The notes beneath the pieces were generated by a model. That model was not told the origin of the DNA. It saw nothing but the letters and a program-made list of their open reading frames with translations, and searched no databases. Made by a program: the position numbers and the translations under genes. This document shows positions 37,008 through 48,489 of a stretch of 64,000 nt of DNA, piece after piece (position 1 is the first letter of the stretch; each line of letters starts with the position of its first letter). The stretch spans positions 9,528-73,527 of the forward strand of contig JAZAMN010000039.1 of the NCBI GenBank assembly GCA_036229005.1. The letters run 5' to 3'. Source of the stretch: Myxococcota bacterium. Lineage in GTDB: Bacteria > Myxococcota_A > UBA796 > CAJQPC01.

Positions 37008-37717
37008 TGCGGGCGGTGTGGACGCTCCTCAAGAAGGAGCTCAAGGTCACCTTCGTGACCCCCCTGGCCTACGTGTTCCTGGGGGTCTTCCTCTTTCTCG
37101 CGGGGCTCTTCTTCTACCTGGGCATCGTGATGACCGGCGAGGCGAGCCTGCGGGTGATGATCGGAAACCTGGCGATCGCCCTGCTCTTTGTGCTGCCCAT
37201 GCTGACCATGCGGCACTTTGCCGAGGAGTCGCGCTCGGGGACCTTCGAGCTGCTGATGACCTCGCCGCTCTCCCCGGTGGCCCTCATCCTGGGCAAGTGG
37301 CTCTCGTCCCTGGTGTTGACAACGATGATGCTGGCCGGGACCCTCATCTTCCCCCTCGTCCTGGAGTTCTACGGCGACCCCGACTGGGGCGTCGTGTTCA
37401 CCTCGTACATCGGGCTGTGGCTGACCTGCGCGGCCTTCACGGCGGCGGGGCTCTTCGCGTCGTCGCTGAGCAATGATCAGGTCGCGGCGGGCATGGGCGG
37501 AATCGTGCTGCTGCTGCCCTTCTGGCTGATCGGGAACGCGGACACGCTGGTCGGCTCCGGGGCCCAGGAGTGGCTGGACAAGCTGGCGCTCCTGCCCCAC
37601 CTGCGGGGCTTCACGCGCGGGGTGGTGGATACGGCAGACGTGGCGTACTTCGTGGCCTTCGCGTTCGTGTTCCTCTTCCTCACCTACCGCACCCTGGAGA
37701 GCCGGCGATGGCGCTGA
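37004..37717 (+). CDS. ABC-2 permease (GldF-like)
   Basis: KKEL..F.TPLAY, TMRHFAEE.RSGT.ELL.T.P, six TMs. Confidence 0.9.
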   Translation: MMRAVWTLLKKELKVTFVTPLAYVFLGVFLFLAGLFFYLGIVMTGEASLRVMIGNLAIALLFVLPMLTMRHFAEESRSGTFELLMTSPLSPVALILGKWLSSLVLTTMMLAGTLIFPLVLEFYGDPDWGVVFTSYIGLWLTCAAFTAAGLFASSLSNDQVAAGMGGIVLLLPFWLIGNADTLVGSGAQEWLDKLALLPHLRGFTRGVVDTADVAYFVAFAFVFLFLTYRTLESRRWR

Positions 37718-39177
37718 GCCGACAGACACAGCGGGCCCTGGCCTACGGCGGAAACGCCACGCTGGTGACCGTCCTGGTCGTGATCCTGGTGGGCGTGCTC
37801 TACGGCGTGGCCGACCGGCACCGCGTGAGCTGGGACCTCTCTGAGGGCCACGAGAACACCCTCCAGGTCGACACCCTCAAGAAGCTGGAGCTCCTCCAGG
37901 AGGACAACCAGCTCGTCAGCGTGACCGCGTTCTCCCACCAGCAGGGCAAGCGCGACACCTACATCAAGGACCGCGAGGTCAAGGACCTGTTGGTCGAGCT
38001 GGACCGGGCGTCTTCTGTGGTGGAGACGGAGTTCGTGGACTTCGACCGCGAGCGGCTCACCGCCGAGAAGCTGGGCGTCACCGAATATGGCCACATCGTG
38101 GTCCAGCGAGGAGAGGAGCGGGTCGACATCCGCGCGCGGGAGCTCTTCCGGGCCGGGGGCCCGGACAAGGAGGCCGAGTTCCTGGGGGAGGCGGTGTTCA
38201 ACCGGGCGGCGGCGCAGCTCCTCTCGGACCGCGAGCGCGTGATCTACACCCTGCGCGGGCACGGCGAGAAGGACCTGCGGGAGAAGGGCTCGGATGGGCT
38301 CAGCGATCTGGCGCTGCTCCTGGAGAAGGAGAACTACCGCCTGGCCCCGCTGGACTTCAACTCGGGTCGGGAGGCCGGCGGCATCCCCATCGTGCCCCTG
38401 GACGCGTCGGCGGTGCTGGTGGCCGGTCCGCAGAACCCCCTGACGGACGCCGAGCAGGACGCTCTGAGCGGCTACCTGGCGGGCGGCGGCGCGATGATGA
38501 TCGCGGTGGACCCCCGCGCGCCGGACCTGCGGGTGCTGGAGCAGCTCGACGTGCGGGTGCCCTCGGGCATCGCCGCGGACAAGCGGGTCTACTACCCCCA
38601 CCCGGACCGCCCGGTGCCCCAGTACGGGCGCCACAGCACGGTGGACGAGCTGCAGGAGGACCGGCTGGCCACGGTGCTCAGCCACATCGCCCCCCTGCGG
38701 GTGCCCGCGCAGCCCCCCGAGTGGATGACCCTGAGCACTCTGTTCAAGTCCTCGCGGGACGGCTGGATCGACCGCGGCGGCGAGCTGGAGGTCGGCGGCC
38801 TGGCCCGCTTCGAGCCGGAGATCGACCTCCCGGGCCCCGTGACCTACGCGGTCGCGATGGAGCTCAAGGCCACCGAGGCCAGCGTGGTGAGCCCCGGGGA
38901 GCGCACGGCCCGCGTGATGGTGCTGGGCGACTCCGACTGGATGGCCAACGAGCTGCTCGCCACGGGCCCTGGCAACGGCAGCTTTGCGGTGAACGCCTTC
39001 CGCTGGCTGGTCTGGGACGACGCCCGGCTCTCGCTGGTGGGCAACGCCACGGCGGTCCGGCGCCTGGCCCTGACGGAGGAGGACCAGGGGCGCATCCGCT
39101 TCTTCGTGGTGTTCCTGCTCCCCATCCTGATCCTGATCGCCGGCGGGGCCGTCTGGGCCAGCCGTAGAGGACGCTGA
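37708..39177 (+). CDS. GldG-family ABC auxiliary protein
   Basis: N-terminal TM, WDLS..NTL, GHGEK, VAGPQ, VLGDSD, C-terminal TM. Confidence 0.85.
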   Translation: MALSRQTQRALAYGGNATLVTVLVVILVGVLYGVADRHRVSWDLSEGHENTLQVDTLKKLELLQEDNQLVSVTAFSHQQGKRDTYIKDREVKDLLVELDRASSVVETEFVDFDRERLTAEKLGVTEYGHIVVQRGEERVDIRARELFRAGGPDKEAEFLGEAVFNRAAAQLLSDRERVIYTLRGHGEKDLREKGSDGLSDLALLLEKENYRLAPLDFNSGREAGGIPIVPLDASAVLVAGPQNPLTDAEQDALSGYLAGGGAMMIAVDPRAPDLRVLEQLDVRVPSGIAADKRVYYPHPDRPVPQYGRHSTVDELQEDRLATVLSHIAPLRVPAQPPEWMTLSTLFKSSRDGWIDRGGELEVGGLARFEPEIDLPGPVTYAVAMELKATEASVVSPGERTARVMVLGDSDWMANELLATGPGNGSFAVNAFRWLVWDDARLSLVGNATAVRRLALTEEDQGRIRFFVVFLLPILILIAGGAVWASRRGR

Positions 39178-40653
39178 ATGGACATCAAGAGCTTCCGCGG
39201 AACCCTGCTGCTGGCCCTGCTGGTTGGCGGCGTGGTCATCGGCGTCAAGGCCCTAGACCCCGCCGAAGAGGAGGTCGAGCAGACGGCGGAGCGCCCCCTG
39301 TTCGTCTTCGAGAAGCAGGACCTGGTCAAGTTCTCGGTGGAGCGGCCGGACGGCGTCGACCTGACGCTGGAGGAGCGCGCCGAGGGCTGGTTCATCGTAG
39401 AGACGGGCAAGCCGGCGGCCAAGACCCAGGTCAACCGCACGCGGCACCAGCTCCACGATCTGGTCGCCCGAGCCAGCGTGGTGGACAACCCCGAGCAGCC
39501 CTCGCTCTACGGGCTGGGGCCGGAGCAGGCGGTGCGCGTCACCCTGTACTTCCGGGACGGGAGCAGCGAGTCGTTCCTCGCCGGCGACCCCAACCCGACG
39601 GGGGTGTCGTACTACATGCAGCGAGAGGGTGAGGAGACCATCTTCACCGTGAAGAAGTCCGCTGTCGACTACTTCTCCCTGGACCTGGAGGACTTCCGCG
39701 AGCGGCGCTTCGCCAGCTTCAACGCCAAGGACGCCGACCGCATCGAGGCCGACCTGCCCCAGGGACGGCGCCTCGTGCTCCAGCGCACCAGCGAGAAGAG
39801 CTGGGAGATGGTGGAGCCGGTCGCGGGCATGTCGGTGTCCCTGGACCGCGCGCGCTCGCTGCTGGGCCGCATCTCGGTGCTCAAGGAGACCGGCGACTTC
39901 GGGGTGGAGCTGCCCGACGGCGACCCCAAGCTGGCGGAGTACGGCCTGTTGGAGCCCCGGGCCCGCATCCGCGTGTCCTTTGGCACCCGGGCCCCCCTGA
40001 CCCTGCTTGTGGGCGACGAGGTCCCCACGGACGACACCCAGCCCCACGCCTGGGTGCGGGTGGAGGGCCAGCAGACCGTGTTCGAGTCGCGGGTGGGCTT
40101 CCTGGACGACTACCTGGTGGACCCCCAGGAGCTGCGCAACCCCCGCTTTGTGGGGCTGGATCCCGACGAGATCGAGAGCTGGCTCGTGGAGCTCAACGAG
40201 GACGAGGACCCCGGCCTGGTCGGGGTGACTCCGGGCAAACGCGTCGGCGACACCTGGCAGTGGGAGGACGGCCGCCCGGTCTCCGGCAGCACCCCCAAGC
40301 GCGTGGCCGACCGCATGGCGACCCTGGACGCCGAGGCCTTCGAGGACGGGGTCCAGAACCTGCGGCCCTACGGTCTGGACACCCCGGTGGCGCGGGTCAC
40401 GCTGCACGACCTGAATGGAGAGGTGGTCGTGGTGCTCTTGGGCGATGAGGGTGAACCGCGCCGGGATGTGGAGGACCGCGTCATCCCGAGGATCTGGGCC
40501 ACCGTCGAGGGCAGCGACGGCGTGTATCTTGTGGATGGCTCCGCCCTGGACGTGCTCCAGGACGCCCGCCGCGAGCACAACAAGAAGCTCAAGAAGGACG
40601 CTGAGAAGGCGGAGCGTCAAGAGAAGATCCCTCTGGAGGCCACCCCCGAATGA
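39178..40653 (+). CDS. DUF4340 domain protein (tandem repeats)
   Basis: N-terminal TM; repeated YGL..P motif three times; typical fourth gene of this ABC locus. Confidence 0.8.
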   Translation: MDIKSFRGTLLLALLVGGVVIGVKALDPAEEEVEQTAERPLFVFEKQDLVKFSVERPDGVDLTLEERAEGWFIVETGKPAAKTQVNRTRHQLHDLVARASVVDNPEQPSLYGLGPEQAVRVTLYFRDGSSESFLAGDPNPTGVSYYMQREGEETIFTVKKSAVDYFSLDLEDFRERRFASFNAKDADRIEADLPQGRRLVLQRTSEKSWEMVEPVAGMSVSLDRARSLLGRISVLKETGDFGVELPDGDPKLAEYGLLEPRARIRVSFGTRAPLTLLVGDEVPTDDTQPHAWVRVEGQQTVFESRVGFLDDYLVDPQELRNPRFVGLDPDEIESWLVELNEDEDPGLVGVTPGKRVGDTWQWEDGRPVSGSTPKRVADRMATLDAEAFEDGVQNLRPYGLDTPVARVTLHDLNGEVVVVLLGDEGEPRRDVEDRVIPRIWATVEGSDGVYLVDGSALDVLQDARREHNKKLKKDAEKAERQEKIPLEATPE

Positions 40654-42125
40654 CTGCCCTGTTGCTGGCGCTCGCCTGCACCACGCGCACTGGAGACGCC
40701 GGCGCGATCGCCATCGCCTACCAGCACCACGTGGACGGCGACATCGAGCCCTGCGGCTGACCCAAGAATCCTCTGGGCGGTCTGTCCAGGCGAGCAGTGG
40801 TGTTGAGCAAGCTCCGCATGGAGTCCCCCACGGTGGTGGTGGACGGCGGCAGCCTGTTCTGGAAGTCCAAGGTGCTGCGGGAGTCGGAGCGCGCGCAGCG
40901 CCTGCTCAAGGCGGAGCTGCAGGCCAAGGTGGTGGCCCGGAACGGGATCGACGCGATGGTGCCCGGCGTCGGGGATCTGGCCCTGGGGCTGGACGAGTAC
41001 GCCCGCTTGACCGCCGAGCTGCCGGTGCTGTCGGCCAACCTGGTCTGCGGGGAGCGGAGCTGGCCCGGCTCGGTGGTGGTGGATCGCGGGGGCGTGAAGC
41101 TGGGAGTGATCGGGGTCAGTGGCGAGCTCCATCCGGACTGCACCCTCAGCCAGCCGCCCCTGGACGCGCTCCAAGCGGAGCTCCAGGGCATCGGCGAGGT
41201 CGACGCGGTGCTGGTCCTGGCCCACGTGGGGCGGGGCTTTGGAAACCAGGCCGCGCAGGTCGCCGGGGTGGACTTCGTTCTGGACGGGGCCGACGGTGCG
41301 AGCCGCAAGCACCCGCTGCAGGAGGGGAGCGCCTGGATCCTGGGCAACGGCAAGCGGGGCAAGACCCTGGGCGTGCTCAAGCTGGAGCCCGTGGAGGGCG
41401 CCGAGCTGTGGATGGACCGGGGGGCCTCCGAGGGGGTGGAAGAACGCCTCGCGCAGCGGCAGGAGCGCCTGGAGGAGGCGCAGGAGGGGCTCAGCAGTGC
41501 CTCGCCGGCGGACCGAGCCAAATACCAGTCGCGGGTGGACTACTACTCCAAAGAGGTGGAGGAGGCAGAAGCCGAGCTAAAGGCGGCCGCCAGCGCCGCC
41601 GGCCCCCGCTCCCTCTTCTCCAACGAGCTGGTCCCGCTGAACGCCGACGTGGGCGAAGACACCGCCATCCTGGCCGAGCTCGAGGCCCTGACCGAGGCCA
41701 TCGCCGCGCTGCCGCCCCAGGTCGCCTCGGCGCCGACCAGCATGGGCCCCTACGTGGGCTCGGAGAGCTGCCGGGGCTGCCACCTGGAGGCGTGGACCCA
41801 GTGGGCCGAGACGCCCCACGCGCGGGCCTACGCGAGCCTGGCCCGGGAGAACAAGGAGCTGGACGCGAGCTGCTATGGCTGCCACGTGACCGGCGCCTTC
41901 CACCCCGAGGGCCCGCAGACCCCGCACGAGGTGGGGCACCTCAAGAACGTGGGCTGCGAGTCCTGCCATGGTCCCGGCCGGGCGCACGTGGCGGACCCCA
42001 AGGCCGGGCAGATGCAGGGGGAGCCCCGGGTCCAGAGCTGCACGCAGTGTCACGACGGCGTGCAGGACCAGGGCGACTTCGACCAGTCCAGCTACTGGCC
42101 GCGGGTGGTCCACACCCCCCAATAG
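40650..42125 (+). CDS. Selenoprotein: UshA-like (C-G-U) lipoprotein fused to tetraheme cytochrome c (Sec at TGA 40758-40760)
   Basis: ATG 40650 (ATGA overlap) reads MTALLLALAC...GDIEPCG-TGA-PKNPLGGLSRR in frame with the 40797-42125 ORF; SECIS follows; hemes CRGCH, CYGCH, CESCH, CTQCH. Confidence 0.88.
40761..40790 (+). promoter_or_regulatory. Bacterial SECIS element
   Basis: Stem CTGGGC/GTCCAG closing a GGTCT loop, with bulged T40772; GGTCTG starts 18 nt after the TGA, as in the E. coli fdhF SECIS. Confidence 0.82.
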
Positions 42126-42138
42126 CGGGCGCGGCGGC

Positions 42139-42804
42139 TCAGTCCAGGCCGTCGTCCGCGTAGAGGGTGAGGAAGGCCTCGGAGCTGTCCGACACCCCGT
42201 CGTTCACCACCAGGCCGATGGTGACGTCGCCCGCTGCATTGCAGGTCAGCTCCGGCGAGGACAGGCTGGGCTCGTCGATGTCCGCGTCACCGACGACCAC
42301 CCGCCAGGTGTAGCTGAGGAGGTCGCCGTCCGCGTCGGTGGAGGACTCCGTGAGGGCGAGGGGGTCGCCGACCCAGCAGTCGCCCGGGTCGTCGATGACG
42401 GCCACTGGGGCGCTGTTGCCGGTGGTCACGCCGCCGCCCACGGTCTTGAAGCTGGTGCTGATCTGAGCGGGCAGGCGGCCGTAGCCGCGACCCTCCAGGG
42501 TGTCCGCGAGGGTGAAGCTGTAGATGGTGTTCTCTTCCAGCTCGGCGTCCGGGACGAGGCTCAGCGTGCGGGTCTGGTCGTCGTAGGACAGGGCGCTGGG
42601 GACGGGGTTGCCGCTGGGGTCGTCCAGGAACACGGCGCCCACCCAGCTATCGGTGACCAGGTCGTCGTTGAAGGTGGCGTGCAGAGCGGTGTCCGGCTCC
42701 ACAAGGGCGGCGCCGTTGGAGGGCGCGACGTGGATGACGGTGAGGTAGTCGGCCACGACCACCGGGTCGCCGCAGCCCAGGAGCAGGCTCAGGATGGGGA
42801 GCAT
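42139..42804 (-). CDS. Ig-like (Big_5) + PKD-like domain lipoprotein
   Basis: LLGC lipobox; P.NGA..V..D....TFN; NSAPVA..STDADGDLLSYTW. Confidence 0.75.
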   Translation of the reverse strand: MLPILSLLLGCGDPVVVADYLTVIHVAPSNGAALVEPDTALHATFNDDLVTDSWVGAVFLDDPSGNPVPSALSYDDQTRTLSLVPDAELEENTIYSFTLADTLEGRGYGRLPAQISTSFKTVGGGVTTGNSAPVAVIDDPGDCWVGDPLALTESSTDADGDLLSYTWRVVVGDADIDEPSLSSPELTCNAAGDVTIGLVVNDGVSDSSEAFLTLYADDGLD

Positions 42805-42812
42805 GGGGGACC

Positions 42813-44267
42813 TCAGAATGCGATGCGGTATGCGATGTTGATGCGGCTGCCGCTCAGGCGCTCCCGGGCTTCTTCGCCGTCGGGGTCCACGTTGCCGAAG
42901 CTGCGGCTGCCCAGGTTCATGGCCAGCTCAGGGGAGAGCACGCCAGGGCCGGCGTCGAAGTCCAGGCCCAGGGCCCAGCTCGTGCCGACGCTGACACCTC
43001 GGAGCTTCTCGTCGTCCTGGAGGCGGGTGCTGGAGTAGCCGGCCAGGGCGGCCCAGCCGTAGAAGTCGGCGAAGCCACCGTCGATGGTGTAGCGGGCGCC
43101 GAGCTCGAGGGGCCGGACGCGGGTGGTCCAGTCCACGGTCTGGGTGGTGGCGCTGCCGCCGATGGGGGGCTGGATGGCCAGCTCCTGCTCCAGGCCGACG
43201 CCGTAGCGGCCGAAGCGGGCGCCCAGGTGCACGTTGGGGACGTCCACCTTGTAGAGCAGGTCCACGCCCAGGTACCAGCTCGCCTGGTTGCCGGCGCGGG
43301 TGCTGCCCAGGCCGGTGCGCAGGCCCAGCCACAGAGGGGGCTCGTCGGTGCTGGTGCTGCCCTTGCTGTTGCTGGGGGGCGGCCCCAGGGTCTCGGGGGC
43401 GGTGGTCTCGGGGGCGGTAGTCTCGGCGGCCTGTTCGGGCTCTTCTGGGGCCTGCTCGGGCTCCTCGGGGGCCTTCGCCACTGCGGGCTCCTCGGTCGCA
43501 CCGGGCTCCTCGGTCACACCGGGCTCCTCGGTCACAGCGGGGCGGCGCTCGCTGGTGCCGACGGAGACCTCGGGGGCCTCCTCGGGGGTTCCGGCGGTCT
43601 CGGCCACTGCCTCGGCGGGAGCCTCGGTAGGAGCCTCGGCGGGAGCCTCGGCGGGCTCAGGAGTGGGCGCTTCGGTCGTGCCAGGGCGGCGCTCGCTTGT
43701 GCCGACGGAGACCTCGGGTTCCTCGGCGGGTGCCTCGGCGGCGGCCTCAGTCGGAGGCTCTGGGGGAGCTTCCGCGACCGCTGGGCTCACCAGCGCGCTG
43801 GCTGGGGCGTCGATCCGCGCGAGCATGGGGAGGCTGTCCCGGGTGGGCTCCAGGCTGAACACGTGCTGCCCAGGGGGCACGTTGATGGTGGCGGTGCTGA
43901 CCACGCTGGGATGGCCGCCTTGCCCGTCCATCAGGCTGCCCGCGCCGGACTTGCCGTCCGCCTTGATGGTCAGGATGTTCACCCCGTCGCCCTTGGCGCG
44001 GACCTGGCCGGTGGGGCCGTCGGTGTCTTCGGGGAGGCGCTGGATGATGTCCACCGTCAGGGTCGCCGGGCCCATCACGTCGAAGGTGAGGGCGCCACCC
44101 TGGGGGATGGCGTACCAGGGGCCGCCCTCCGGACCGCCCCGGAGCAGGGCGGGCTGGCTGTTGTTGTTGGGGGGCAGCGGGTCGGCTGCCGCCGGGGTGG
44201 ACAGCAGGGCCAGGCCAATCAGGGTCAGTCCCGTCGCCCAGCGGGCCGGGGTCAGAAGCGAGCGCAT
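42813..44267 (-). CDS. Exported protein with Pro/Glu/Ala-rich stalk and C-terminal outer-membrane beta-barrel
   Basis: Signal peptide, low-complexity repeats, amphipathic strands ending in YRIAF. Confidence 0.7.
   Translation of the reverse strand: MRSLLTPARWATGLTLIGLALLSTPAAADPLPPNNNSQPALLRGGPEGGPWYAIPQGGALTFDVMGPATLTVDIIQRLPEDTDGPTGQVRAKGDGVNILTIKADGKSGAGSLMDGQGGHPSVVSTATINVPPGQHVFSLEPTRDSLPMLARIDAPASALVSPAVAEAPPEPPTEAAAEAPAEEPEVSVGTSERRPGTTEAPTPEPAEAPAEAPTEAPAEAVAETAGTPEEAPEVSVGTSERRPAVTEEPGVTEEPGATEEPAVAKAPEEPEQAPEEPEQAAETTAPETTAPETLGPPPSNSKGSTSTDEPPLWLGLRTGLGSTRAGNQASWYLGVDLLYKVDVPNVHLGARFGRYGVGLEQELAIQPPIGGSATTQTVDWTTRVRPLELGARYTIDGGFADFYGWAALAGYSSTRLQDDEKLRGVSVGTSWALGLDFDAGPGVLSPELAMNLGSRSFGNVDPDGEEARERLSGSRINIAYRIAF
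43380..43780 (-). repeat. Intragenic short tandem/direct repeats
   Basis: 35-bp direct repeat at 43540 and 43684 (PEVSVGTSERRP twice); 18-bp TEEPG units; 15-bp TTAPE units; 12-bp EAPA units. Confidence 0.8.
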
Positions 44268-44273
44268 TCGGTG

Positions 44274-47200
44274 CTACTCCACGCCGAAGATTTCGATCTC
44301 GTTCACGCCACCGCCGACGCTGTAGTAGCTGTCGACGTAGAAGCGGACGTACTGGGCGGTGACGGGGCTGCTGAGGTCGATCTGGTGGTAGCGCAGGTCG
44401 GTCTCCAGGTCTCCGGTGCCGCTGTCGATGAGCTGCTCCTCACCGTTGAACTCGCCGGTGTGGGAGGCGTAGATCTCATAGTCCTTGGCGGCGTAGCTGT
44501 AGCGGGGGCCGTGGTGGGTGTTGACCCAGCGGATCCGGCCGATCCCGGTGATGTCCGCCAGCTCGACCTCGACCCAGCCCACCGAGCCGGTGCGGGCCAG
44601 CCAGTAGGTCTCGTCGGCGTAGGCGTCCTCGCTGGTGTCCTCGTCGATGACGTTGGCCGCCGTGTAGTTGGCCGAGAGGTTGGAGCTGGCGCTGGCGCTG
44701 CCGTCGGGGGCCAGGTTGTCGCTGATGGTGCAGACCTCGCCCTCGGTGTAGAGGGCCTTGAGCTCGGTGCCGGTGAAGTTGGACTCCACGAAGCGCAGGT
44801 TGTCGAGCTGCCCCTCGAAGAAGTAGCTCGTGCCCAGCGCGGAGCCGATGTAGAGGTCGGAGCTGTTGGTGTTCAGGTCCGAGCCCACGGTCACGATGTC
44901 CTCCAGGACGCCGTCCACGTAGAGCCGCAGCTTGGTGCCCGTGTAGTTGCAGACCACGTGGTGCATCGTGCCGTCGTTGTAGCCGCTGGCGCTGGCGGTC
45001 CAGTCTGTCCCCGAGGTGTCGCGGACCAGGCAGTACAGGTCGCTGCCGTCCAGGGCCGCCGCGTAGTTGTACACGCCCTTGTGGAAGAGCACCTCGATAT
45101 CGGAGGTCGCGCCGTCCCGGCTGTACCAGAAGTCGGCGGTGAACGCGGAGGAGAAGCTCAGGGTGCTGTCGTGGGTGATGCTGGCGTAGCTGCTGCCGTC
45201 GAACACGGCTGCGTTGCCCATCTCACCGATGATGCGGTCGGTGCCGGACTCGGTCGCGTCCAGCCCGTTGGGGCTGTAGTCGGTGGCCGTGGCGCCGGTG
45301 TCCTCGTCGAAGGCCAGGAAGAGGCTGTAGTCGTCGTAGCAATCGTCGCTGTAGGCCACGCTGATGCTCTCGACGTTGGTGCCGACGTTCCCGACGATGT
45401 CCTCGGAGTCGACCTCGATGCTGTTGCTCCCGTCCGAGAGCGCGACGTAGGCGACCCAGGTGTCGAAGTTCCCGGAGGTGCTCACCGCGGTGGCCCCACC
45501 CACGGTCAGCGAGGAGATCTCGCTGTCGTCGGAGGCCGTGCCCTCGATGGCGATGATGCCGTCGGAGGCGGTGGTGCCGGTCGCCGGCGAGGTGATGGTC
45601 GCGGTCGGCGCGTCGGTGTCCTCGTCGCCGCTACAGAACTGCTCGGTGTCGTTGTAGCGGTCGCTGATCTCGGAGGCGGTGAGGGCGGAGTCGTGGATGA
45701 TGAACTCATCCATCCTCCCGTTGAAGGCGTAGAAGCCAGGGGAGGGGCTGTAGTCGCCGATGACGAGGTCTCCCGTGCTGGTCCCGATGGCGCCGGAGCC
45801 TCCTCCAGAGCTCCCGATCGCCACGCCGTCCTCGTAGATCTCACCGTTGAAGCTGCTGTCGTAGGTGATGGCGTAGTGGTGCCACTCACCATCGATGGTG
45901 GGCGTCGCGTAGAGGTAGACGTAGGCGCCAGTTCCGGTCAGGCCGTAGAAGGTGAGGGTAGCCCCCGCCAGGTAGGAGGCGTAGTTGTAGCCCCTCCCGC
46001 TGTTCTCCTTCATGAAGATGGTCTGGGTGCCGCGGAGGTTGCTGTCGGGCTTCATCCACCACTCGATGGTGAAGTCCGAGGTGAGCTGCAGCTCGCTGCT
46101 GTCGGGGACGGTGACGCTCTCGCTGCCGTCGAAGTCCATGCCGCCAAAGACCCGCGCGCCCAGCCAGTCGCCGTTGGTCGCGGTGCCGTCGTTGCCGTCC
46201 CACGTGCTGTCCGAGACGGTGGTCCCGCTGGTCTCGTCCATGTGGAGCACGAGCACGGCGCCGCTGTCTCCAACCTCGATGTCGACGCGGTCGGTGTCGA
46301 AGTCGGTGCCGTCGTCGGCGTAGACGCGCAGGGAGTAGGTGCCCTCTGCGTCCGGGGTGAAGCTGGGCGTGGCGGTCTTGCGGTCGGTGATGTCGCCGTT
46401 GACCAGGGCCGAGCCGGAGGGGACGGAGATGAACACCCACTTGTAGGTCAGGGTGTCGCCGTCGTCGTCGGTGCTGCCCGAGGCGTCCAGGCTGACCAGC
46501 CCGGTCCCGCAGATCTCCTGGTCGTCACCCGCGTCGGCCACGGGCACGGTGTTGGTGGAGCCGCCGGTGACGGTCACCTCCATCGTGTCGATGTCCTTCT
46601 CGTAGGGGTCGTCCACGCGCAGGCGCACGGTGTAGGTGCCCGCGACGTCCGGGGTGAAGGTGGTGCTGACGGCGGTCCGGTCACCGAAGTCCGCGCCGGC
46701 GATCGACGAGCCGCTGGGGACGCTGGTGAAGCCCCAGTAGTAGGTGATGGGGTCGCCGTCCGGGTCGCTGGAGCCGCTGCCGTCCACCGTGACGGTGTCG
46801 CCCAGGGTGACGCTCTGGTCGGCGCCGGCGTCCGAGATCGGGGCGGTGTTGGCGCCGCCGCTCACGCTGATGCTCATGCTGTCGGTGTCGCAGGCGGCGG
46901 AGGTGTCGCAGACCTCGAGGCTGAGGCTGTAGGTGCCGCCCACGTCTGGCGTGATGGAGGGGGTGGCGGTGTCCGCGCCGGAGAGGTCCGCGGTGGTGAG
47001 GGCGGAGCTGGTCGGCGCGCTGTCCAGGGTCCAGGCGTAGGTGAGGGCGTCGCCGTCGGGGTCGGAGGATGCGCTGCCGTCGGCGCTGAGGGTGTCTCCC
47101 AGGGTGCCGCTGACGTCGGAGCCGGCGTTGGCCACGGGCGGGTTGTTGCCGGCGGCGCCCTCGACCTCCCAGGTCACGGTGTCGGTGTCGCAGAGGGGCT

Positions 47201-48353
47201 CGCTGTCGCACACGGCGAGCTGGATGAGCCAGGTGCCGGCCACGTCGGGCTCGAAGCTGGCCTCCAGGGTGTCAGCGCCGTCGATGTCCGCTGCGCTCAG
47301 GGTGGAGCCGCTGGGCTGGCTCACGAACTGCCAGGTCGCCTCCAGGGTCTCTCCCTCGGGGTCGTAGGAGGCCCGGCCGTCCAGGGTGATGGCCTCGCCC
47401 AGTCCGGCGACGCCGTCGCTGCCGCCGTCTGCGACGGGGGCCTGGTTCTCGCCCATACCGGAGCGCACGTCCACCTGGCAGCGGCTCTCCAGGGCGCCGT
47501 CGCTCACGGTGAGCTCCGCTCGGAAGACGCCGACCACGTCTGTGGTGAAGGTGGGAGAGGATTCTGTCTCGTCGCTGAGGCTGGCGGCGCTGCCGGCCGG
47601 GGGCGCGAGCTCCCAGGAGTAGGTCAGGGGGGCGCCCTCAGGGTCGGAGGAGGCGGAGCCGTCCACCTGGACCAGAGTGCCGACCTCGACGGATTGGCTG
47701 GGGCCGCAGTCGGCGACAGGGGGCTGGTTGGCCTCTTCCGTGATGACCAGGGTCAGGTCGTCCCGGATGCTGCGGGTGCGGCCGTCATCCACCTCGAGGC
47801 CCAGCACGTAGGTGCCGGGGGTGTCGGCCACGAACTCCGCGGAGGCGTTCTGCACGCTCTCGTGCTCCAGGCTGGGGGAAGCGCCGCTGGGGGCCACCTG
47901 CACGGAGAAGATGTAGCTCAGCGCGTCCCCGTCAGGGTCGAAGGAGGCGCTGCCGTCCAGGACGATCGGGACGCCGACGGCGATGGTGCTGCTCGTGCTG
48001 AGCACCGCCTCGGGGGCGGCGTTCGCGCCCTGCGCGGTGACGGTGACGATGTCGGGCGCGGAGACGTTGCCCTCGTCGTCGGTCACGGTCAGCGAGATGG
48101 TGTAGGACCCAGCCAGGTCAGGGGTGAAGGTCCCAGTGGCGGAGTCCCCAGGAGCCTCTGCCTCCGAACCATCGGGCGCTCCGACCACGCTCCAGGAGTA
48201 GGTGGTGACGAATCCGTCGGCGTCGTAGGACCCCGAGCCGTCCAGGCTGGCGCTGCCCCCGAGCGCGACGAGCTGGTCAAAACCAGCGTCGGCGGTGGGG
48301 TTGAAGCTCGCCTGATCCTTGCAGGCCGCCAGAAGGAAGAGGAGGTTGATCAT
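44274..48353 (-). CDS. Large surface lipoprotein: 7 PKD/REJ-like repeats, 2 LamG domains, Ig domain, F5/8 discoidin-like domain
   Basis: LAAC lipobox; repeated P.ADAG.D...LDGS.S.DPDGD.LTY.W; FTIEWW/WHH/F.G.MDE LamG motifs twice; C-terminal AQYVRF...VNEIEIFG. Confidence 0.88.
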   Translation of the reverse strand: MINLLFLLAACKDQASFNPTADAGFDQLVALGGSASLDGSGSYDADGFVTTYSWSVVGAPDGSEAEAPGDSATGTFTPDLAGSYTISLTVTDDEGNVSAPDIVTVTAQGANAAPEAVLSTSSTIAVGVPIVLDGSASFDPDGDALSYIFSVQVAPSGASPSLEHESVQNASAEFVADTPGTYVLGLEVDDGRTRSIRDDLTLVITEEANQPPVADCGPSQSVEVGTLVQVDGSASSDPEGAPLTYSWELAPPAGSAASLSDETESSPTFTTDVVGVFRAELTVSDGALESRCQVDVRSGMGENQAPVADGGSDGVAGLGEAITLDGRASYDPEGETLEATWQFVSQPSGSTLSAADIDGADTLEASFEPDVAGTWLIQLAVCDSEPLCDTDTVTWEVEGAAGNNPPVANAGSDVSGTLGDTLSADGSASSDPDGDALTYAWTLDSAPTSSALTTADLSGADTATPSITPDVGGTYSLSLEVCDTSAACDTDSMSISVSGGANTAPISDAGADQSVTLGDTVTVDGSGSSDPDGDPITYYWGFTSVPSGSSIAGADFGDRTAVSTTFTPDVAGTYTVRLRVDDPYEKDIDTMEVTVTGGSTNTVPVADAGDDQEICGTGLVSLDASGSTDDDGDTLTYKWVFISVPSGSALVNGDITDRKTATPSFTPDAEGTYSLRVYADDGTDFDTDRVDIEVGDSGAVLVLHMDETSGTTVSDSTWDGNDGTATNGDWLGARVFGGMDFDGSESVTVPDSSELQLTSDFTIEWWMKPDSNLRGTQTIFMKENSGRGYNYASYLAGATLTFYGLTGTGAYVYLYATPTIDGEWHHYAITYDSSFNGEIYEDGVAIGSSGGGSGAIGTSTGDLVIGDYSPSPGFYAFNGRMDEFIIHDSALTASEISDRYNDTEQFCSGDEDTDAPTATITSPATGTTASDGIIAIEGTASDDSEISSLTVGGATAVSTSGNFDTWVAYVALSDGSNSIEVDSEDIVGNVGTNVESISVAYSDDCYDDYSLFLAFDEDTGATATDYSPNGLDATESGTDRIIGEMGNAAVFDGSSYASITHDSTLSFSSAFTADFWYSRDGATSDIEVLFHKGVYNYAAALDGSDLYCLVRDTSGTDWTASASGYNDGTMHHVVCNYTGTKLRLYVDGVLEDIVTVGSDLNTNSSDLYIGSALGTSYFFEGQLDNLRFVESNFTGTELKALYTEGEVCTISDNLAPDGSASASSNLSANYTAANVIDEDTSEDAYADETYWLARTGSVGWVEVELADITGIGRIRWVNTHHGPRYSYAAKDYEIYASHTGEFNGEEQLIDSGTGDLETDLRYHQIDLSSPVTAQYVRFYVDSYYSVGGGVNEIEIFGVE

Positions 48354-48489
48354 GTCTCACGCTCCGTGTGCACGGTCCCCCGCCTGCTGGTCGGAATGCG
48401 AGGGAACTGAAAGAAACCCGCTCGAAGTATAGCGGAGTGCTTTCGGGTCAGTGCACTCCCCCCCCAGGGACAAACCCCTCTTTGGCTCC

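Follow-up and report, generated by a model that had tools for sequence, protein, structure and literature searches.

A probable bacterial SECIS element downstream of an in-frame UGA codon in an UshA-like gene of a Myxococcota bacterium

In Escherichia coli K-12, the SECIS element of fdhF lies in the coding region directly past the UGA codon, where TGA is followed by the 18 nt CACGGCCCATCGGTTGCA and then by GGTCTG. In this element, the A and U residues that flank GGUC pair with each other, closing a tetraloop. A review names U17, G23 and U24 as the bases that are conserved in E. coli, with U17 and G23 among the contacts made by SelB (excerpt of PMC8659212). A more general description is provided by the bSECISearch consensus, which, in the Fig. 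2 legend of a 2026 review, calls for 3-9 nt in the apical loop, 4-16 bp in the upper stem, a G in at least one of loop positions 1 and 2 (G, with G or U next), a spacing of 16-37 nt, and a minimum free energy (MFE) of -7.5 kcal/mol or lower (PMC13188914). Regarding the host gene, an UshA-like (COG0737) family of selenoproteins carrying a CxU motif was tabulated, with 76 Sec sequences, in a 2008 GOS study (PMC2398784), and the same family is entered as NF041198 in the selenoprotein table of the 2026 review (PMC13188914); the excerpts examined of these two papers give no description of the SECIS of this family.

The window that is the subject of this analysis is a stretch of 64,000 nt from a Myxococcota genome. 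Sequence comparison, together with analogy to the E. coli system, indicates that the stem-loop at 40773-40789 of the window is very probably a bacterial SECIS, by which UGA 40758 would be read as selenocysteine through recognition of a GGUCU loop by SelB. It appears to be an ordinary element within an already known selenoprotein family, for which the comparative evidence is strong. The gene that harbors it, and its surroundings, are as follows.

40650..42125, plus strand: UshA-like (seleno)protein gene, open for 491 codons when TGA is translated as U, with matches to NF041198 and to Pfam.
40758..40760, plus strand: UGA codon 37, predicted selenocysteine; in frame, the same codon being TGA in 70 homologs of other genomes.
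37570-40653, plus strand: two genes upstream of the selenoprotein gene, namely an ABC_transp_aux/DUF4350 (GldG-like) gene and then a DUF4340 gene.
42139-48353, minus strand: downstream genes, one for a Big_5/PKD protein and the other for a protein of 1359 residues in which PKD, Ig-like, laminin-G, and F5/8-C domains are numerous.

The TGA at 40758 is in frame both with the ATG at 40650 and with the open reading frame that ends at 42125, and translation with TGA as U generates a product of 491 residues. The start codon shares the sequence ATGA with the stop codon of the upstream gene, an overlap that suggests that the DUF4340 gene and the selenoprotein gene may belong to one operon. The N-terminus of the product consists of a short hydrophobic stretch with a Cys at its end, which probably represents a lipoprotein-type signal, and is followed by E-P-C-G-U at residues 33-37; the P-C-G-U motif is thus present with TGA as its Sec codon, in the context E-P-C-G-U-P-K-N-P-L-G-G-L-S-R-R. 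The C-terminal part carries four CxxCH haem motifs and a match to Pfam Cytochrome_C554 (3.4e-13, residues 374-441). The predicted product is a putative haem-bearing lipoprotein of metallophosphatase-like character with a CGU motif. The NCBIfam model NF041198 (UshA_like_PCGU) matches with an E-value of 1.9e-77 over residues 5-474, which correspond to positions 9-514 of the 519 in the profile, and a six-frame search with the same model yields 253 bits for the window gene. The window protein resembles the UshA-like CxU family in its full-length match, its P-C-G-U motif and its C-terminal multihaem part, but differs in score, its 261 bits being slightly below the curated cut-off of 275; this cut-off is exceeded in just 17 of 61 related genomes, even though the TGA forms agree in motif and length. 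Downstream, a 1727-codon open reading frame (43227-48410, plus strand) without a Pfam match overlaps the minus-strand genes at 42139-48353, and is probably a shadow frame.

The region that follows the UGA codon, 40758-40790, reads TGA CCC AAG AAT CCT CTG GGC GGT CTG TCC AGG, and GGTCTG starts 18 nt past the TGA. The sequence, the CTGGGC/GTCCAG pairing, the GGTCT loop and the 18-nt spacing, all of which had been pointed out in an earlier note on this DNA, are present as quoted, and the likeness to fdhF stated in the note is correct. The parts of the hairpin are as follows.

40769..40793, plus strand: whole predicted hairpin, with 9 pairs and one C/C mismatch; the lower pairs are partly kept in relatives.
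40773..40778, plus strand: 5' arm CUGGGC, with the conserved core GGGC at 40775-40778 (alignment columns 27-30: G in 47, G in 47, G in 47, and C in 46 with G in 1).
40779..40783, plus strand: apical loop GGUCU, the putative SelB contact by analogy; invariant in 71 of the 71 Sec-form genes examined.
40784..40789, plus strand: 3' arm GUCCAG, with the conserved core GYCC and the rare Arg codon AGG; the pair between columns 29 and 37 is G-U in 29 sequences and G-C in 18.

When 40755-40800 is folded with RNAfold, CUGGGC (40773-40778) is paired with GUCCAG (40784-40789) around GGUCU, and below these 6-bp arms the program adds a U40772-G40790 wobble, a C40771/C40791 mismatch and two further pairs, the stem comprising 7 pairs in the MFE fold of the window sequence. 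The RNAfold MFE is -8.8 kcal/mol for 19 nt, -9.5 for 25 nt (40769-40793), -10.3 for 30 nt and -13.8 for 46 nt. The C40771-G40790 pair with a bulged T40772, as drawn previously, is possible, but RNAfold prefers the wobble and the mismatch in its place. As a conserved feature the bulge does not hold: T40772 occupies the wobble position of a Pro codon and varies freely (T in 18, C in 13, G in 10 and A in 6 of 47 Sec forms), and it is found at position 15 rather than 17 when counted from the U of UGA, so that it does not correspond to U17. Position 17 is occupied by T40774, which is paired with A40788 and is U in 32/47 homologs and A, C or G in the other 15.

The comparison with the E. coli fdhF SECIS thus reveals both likeness and divergence. 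Both elements are located in the coding region directly past UGA, with GGUCUG after 18 nt, and G23 and U24 fall at the same places in the window loop (G40780 and U40781, respectively). In contrast, the window loop is closed by C-G and is a GGUCU pentaloop, whereas in fdhF GGUC is flanked by A and U; the bulged U17 has no counterpart in the form of a conserved bulged U; the stem letters are unrelated; and the host gene does not encode a formate dehydrogenase. The window hairpin also falls within the bSECISearch model, with a loop of 5 nt that starts G-G-U, a stem of 6-7 bp (of which 4 bp are invariant), a spacing of 18 nt and an MFE between -8.8 and -13.8 kcal/mol, but across the family it is far more fixed in sequence than the model demands.

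RNAfold, which the earlier note had proposed as a check, does predict the hairpin; its stability, however, is no better than that of shuffled sequences (z = 0.44, with 125 of 200 shuffles folding as well or better), and is ordinary for a sequence of 70% G+C. Similarly, the pattern TGA-N18-GGTCTG is expected 0.64 times per shuffled window, and occurs at least once in 42 of 100 shuffles. Given this z-score and this expected count, the single sequence is therefore unable to carry the claim of a SECIS, and it is only the comparison with homologs that lifts the hairpin far above chance. An Rfam scan of 40000-42000 at E-values up to 10 gave no SECIS match, and a scan of 40740-40830 gave no match whatever. 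Three weak Rfam matches elsewhere, to hya and to two miRNA families (E 0.5-2.5), were taken as chance; the 'hya RNA' match, at 41789-41857 on the plus strand within the coding region, reached 20.7 bits (E 1.4), the gathering score being 56.8.

The comparison with homologs was performed initially at the level of the same order. When 61 related genomes were searched with NF041198, 49 of them gave matches at E <=1e-40 (64 rows), of which 62 rows were examined, two (G014:C59 and G056:C722) being dropped for matching without the N-terminus. At the aligned codon, 47/62 rows, window included, have TGA, and 15/62 have TGC or TGT. In all 47 TGA rows, GG[C/G] GGT CTG YCC is present in the same register, with GGTCTG 18 nt past the TGA; in the 15 Cys rows, whose motif is PCGCPT.P.GGF.RR, GGTCT is found in none, the Gly codons vary freely and Phe replaces Leu. 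Since the element is in frame, it would fix the codons GGC GGT CTG YCC, and with them the residues G-G-L-(S/P) from Sec+6 to Sec+9. The constraint is also visible at synonymous positions: among the 47 Sec forms, the entropy of the third position is 0-0.15 bits for codons +5 to +9, as opposed to 1.1-1.9 bits for the flanking codons (+1 to +4, +10 to +14) and 0.7-1.5 bits for codons -3 to -1.

The earlier note had also regarded the codons AAT, CCT and GGT as unusual for this genome, and had read them as a sign of constraint at the RNA level. All three are rare, according to codon usage computed over 1967 long open reading frames (AAT 3.1% of Asn, CCT 5.9% of Pro and GGT 7.3% of Gly), but the constraint applies to GGT only, which is kept in 47/47 Sec forms versus 1/15 Cys forms; AAT and CCT vary among homologs. 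Two Arg codons of the 3' arm are rare as well (AGG 3.0% of Arg, CGA 4.2%), and the Arg after the 3' arm is encoded by AGG or AGA in 34/47 Sec forms, versus 0/15 Cys forms. The rare codon AGG in the 3' arm thus appears to be under RNA-level selection too.

With regard to the four core pairs, 99.5% of cells are paired in the Sec forms, versus 33% in the Cys forms, and the core is found in the sequence's own MFE fold in 30/47 Sec sequences versus 0/15 Cys sequences. Within this 4-bp core, three pairs are kept in 47/47 sequences and the fourth in 46/47. RNAalifold, applied to the 47 Sec sequences, retains GGGC/GYCC alone (4 pairs, 0 double changes), and detects no compensatory pairs because the core hardly varies. 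The 9-pair model leaves 82.7% of cells paired over the 47 sequences, versus 23-51% after displacement of the 3' arm by 1-3 columns. The core is almost without compensatory change; at some columns, pairing is kept by different letters. The pair of columns 29 and 37, for instance, is kept as G-U in 29 sequences and as G-C in 18, following Ser TCC versus Pro CCC; columns 26-40 are U-A in 31, G-C in 2 and unpaired in 14, and columns 25-41 are C-G in 36, U-G in 1 and unpaired in 10. Columns 24-42 (column 24 being T40772) are unpaired in 18/47, and here, as at columns 26-40, the lower stem is broken in many homologs.

These data bear directly on the idea that TGA 40758 is a true stop, and that the gene is split, dead or restarting at GTG 40797, the hairpin being a chance fold of GC-rich coding sequence. 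Such an idea would be compatible with the single-sequence z of 0.44, with the presence of an open reading frame from GTG 40797, and with a pattern expected by chance approximately 0.64 times per window. It is contradicted, however, by 70 other genomes in which this codon is likewise TGA, with the frame open on both sides and the codon aligned with Cys in paralogs; by four successive wobble sites that are frozen only in the TGA-bearing genes; by the complete Sec machinery of the genome (see below); and by the 36 codons ahead of the TGA, which hold an export signal and a conserved G-E-I-E-P-C-G motif. A true stop is thus of almost negligible probability, and reading of the UGA as selenocysteine is preferred; the gene at 40650..42125 should accordingly be annotated as one predicted selenoprotein gene, not as a truncated open reading frame.

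The capacity of the organism to decode UGA in this manner can be assessed from its genome, whose assembly is 94% complete. A tRNA-Sec with anticodon TCA scores 64.7 bits, above cut-off, and SelB (340 bits, encoded on C20), SelD (280 bits) and SelA (478 bits) are also all above their cut-offs; the selA/selB/selC/selD set is complete. The genome harbors in addition a second gene in which TGA is followed by the same loop at the same distance:

C14:63400-66255 (locus L097), minus strand: formate dehydrogenase alpha gene, with a Pfam Molybdopterin match (3.2e-69) and an in-frame TGA.

In this gene, TGA is followed by 18 nt, GGTCT, and a 7-bp stem (GGTCGCC/GGTGACC). The window hairpin resembles this SECIS of the genome's own formate dehydrogenase in having TGA + 18 nt + GGUCU, a C-G closure and a 7-bp stem; the stem letters, the gene and the encoded peptide (A-G-L-V-T in the formate dehydrogenase, G-G-L-S-R in the window) differ. 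Genome-wide, 21 TGA-N18-GGTCTG sites are present, but only 3 have a closing stem of at least 4 bp: the formate dehydrogenase gene and the window gene, with 7 bp each, and a third site with 4 bp, which lacks the required open reading frame context. The SelB of this genome thus most likely accepts a loop and a spacing of the E. coli type, which could be useful for expression or reporters in E. coli-type systems.

By analogy with the E. coli system, GGUCU would be displayed on the mRNA hairpin for recognition by the C-terminal domains of SelB, G23 and U24 of the loop probably serving as contacts, and SelB would deliver Sec-tRNA(Sec) to UGA 40758. Both the binding of SelB and the insertion of Sec at this codon are thus predicted from analogy, and the identity of the inserted residue is deduced in the same manner, which leaves room for a process in which the UGA is read through without SelB, by a near-cognate tRNA (Trp or Cys) or another suppressor, with the hairpin merely slowing the ribosome. 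That the genome keeps selA, selB, selC and selD, that a SelB-dependent element has the same loop and spacing, and that the family is curated as a selenoprotein (NF041198; listed in the cited tables of PMC2398784 and PMC13188914) all make such SelB-free read-through extremely unlikely, in favor of Sec insertion through SelB.

Other genes of the same genome also carry candidate Sec codons. A genome-wide screen for in-frame TGA between high-GC3 frames returned 475, and then 5134, candidates, mostly adjacent same-frame genes, which were filtered by hairpin; the following were chosen by eye from this noisy screen.

C16:73160-75055, C59:15098-15583, C46:17273-18274, C31:141712-142302 and C20:144925-145446 (loci L093-L096, L098): five genes of the AhpC/TSA-redoxin type, each having an in-frame TGA at its redox motif.

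Their redox motifs are of the types W-U-P-x-C, G-U-T-x-E and T-U-G-G-C, and their hairpin loops, located 16-18 nt downstream, are GGUC, GGUC, AGGU, GGUAC and AGUUU, four of which contain GGU. These five genes are likely to encode further selenoproteins of the genome. Most of them open with a short M..LLLLAC signal, as does the window gene. Another candidate of the screen, on C50, was rejected, being a LexA-like gene that ends at a true stop.

In order to widen the comparison, 301 genomes of the phylum were searched with NF041198, and 220 gave a match at E <=1e-30. The tallies that follow rest on the 150 matches listed, a further 175 lying outside the listing; from the listed matches, all 24 further TGA rows and 20 of the better-scoring rows without a stop were added. 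Among the matches listed, GGTCT is found 18 nt past the TGA in 24/24 added TGA rows, while in the 20 added rows without a stop the aligned codon is always TGC or TGT, and GGTCT is absent. A regular-expression tally had first given 72 Sec entries, 2 of them without GGTCT; both were false, being on the opposite strand and with internal stops. Over the same order and the listed phylum matches examined, GGTCT at +18 is thus present in 71/71 Sec forms and in 0/35 Cys forms, counts that include homologs of shared ancestry and are not 71 and 35 independent events. The earlier note had proposed beforehand that homologs encoding Cys should lose the stem, and this is what was found, the core being present in all of the TGA-bearing homologs examined and in none of the Cys-bearing ones. 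As members of other subfamilies (PCGCPT..GGF.RR, PCGCT.., PCGCVKDQ..), the Cys forms serve as a distant control; a recent switch from Sec to Cys was not seen among the homologs examined. GGTCT 18 nt past TGA may thus be used to recognize, at the RNA level, the Sec forms within the UshA-like family. The view put forward earlier, that the RNA provides support for recoding independently of the protein evidence, is supported by the restriction of the core to TGA homologs, by the Sec machinery and by the formate dehydrogenase loop.

The register of pairing is not the same throughout the phylum. Eighteen Sec sequences of sister lineages encode G-G-L-A-(R/K); in these, pairing of the 3' arm is displaced by one base, as GGC/GCC, leaving a loop of GGUCUN or GUCU. 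This register-shift model leaves 90.7% of cells paired, versus 20-48% when slid, and columns 27-40 are U-A in 7, G-C in 5 and unpaired in 6 of these sequences. The covariation score of the sister-lineage alignment was reached by 0/500 shuffles; RNAalifold, applied to the same sequences, favors GGCG/YGCC with a GUCU loop, and finds no compensatory pairs. The hairpin thus appears to be kept across a change of register, with the loop word constant. The shift (loci L099-L117, alignment A2) involves no indel, and leaves either a hexaloop or, according to RNAalifold, a GUCU tetraloop.

The change of register is also relevant to the possibility that GGC-GGT-CTG-YCC is kept for some other purpose at the RNA or DNA level, for instance to pause translation, to set the stability of the mRNA or to provide a protein with a binding site on the DNA, and that its likeness to a SECIS is accidental. 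Conservation that is expressed more by sequence than by compensatory change, and the lack of a match to any Rfam SECIS model, would be in keeping with such a purpose. Nevertheless, the stretch is confined to TGA-bearing genes (71/71 versus 0/35), its distance from the UGA is that needed by E. coli SelB, the same loop and spacing recur past the UGA of an unrelated formate dehydrogenase gene in the same genome, and the pairing register moves between lineages while the hairpin is kept. An unrelated function is consequently judged highly unlikely, and the stretch is best regarded as a putative SECIS.

A broader proposal can be made only tentatively, its chances being somewhat short of even: GGUCU at 18 nt past UGA could be one fixed RNA word, used phylum-wide in unrelated genes (UshA-like and formate dehydrogenase) and fixing the residues G-G-L-(S/P/A), with the hairpin having been rebuilt between orders in another register of pairing, its loop word being retained. 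If true, this would imply that SelB is strict both in the distance that it measures and in the loop that it reads, and that it is the RNA signal, not the enzyme, that determines four of the protein's residues.

Further TGA-bearing homologs form a second set (loci L080-L085, L108-L110, L112, L114-L117), which covers only approximately profile positions 16-385 of NF041198 and is devoid of the cytochrome part. Members of this set have K, A or G after Sec instead of P, carry GGTCT at +18 as well, and in several genomes adjoin a full-length Cys form.
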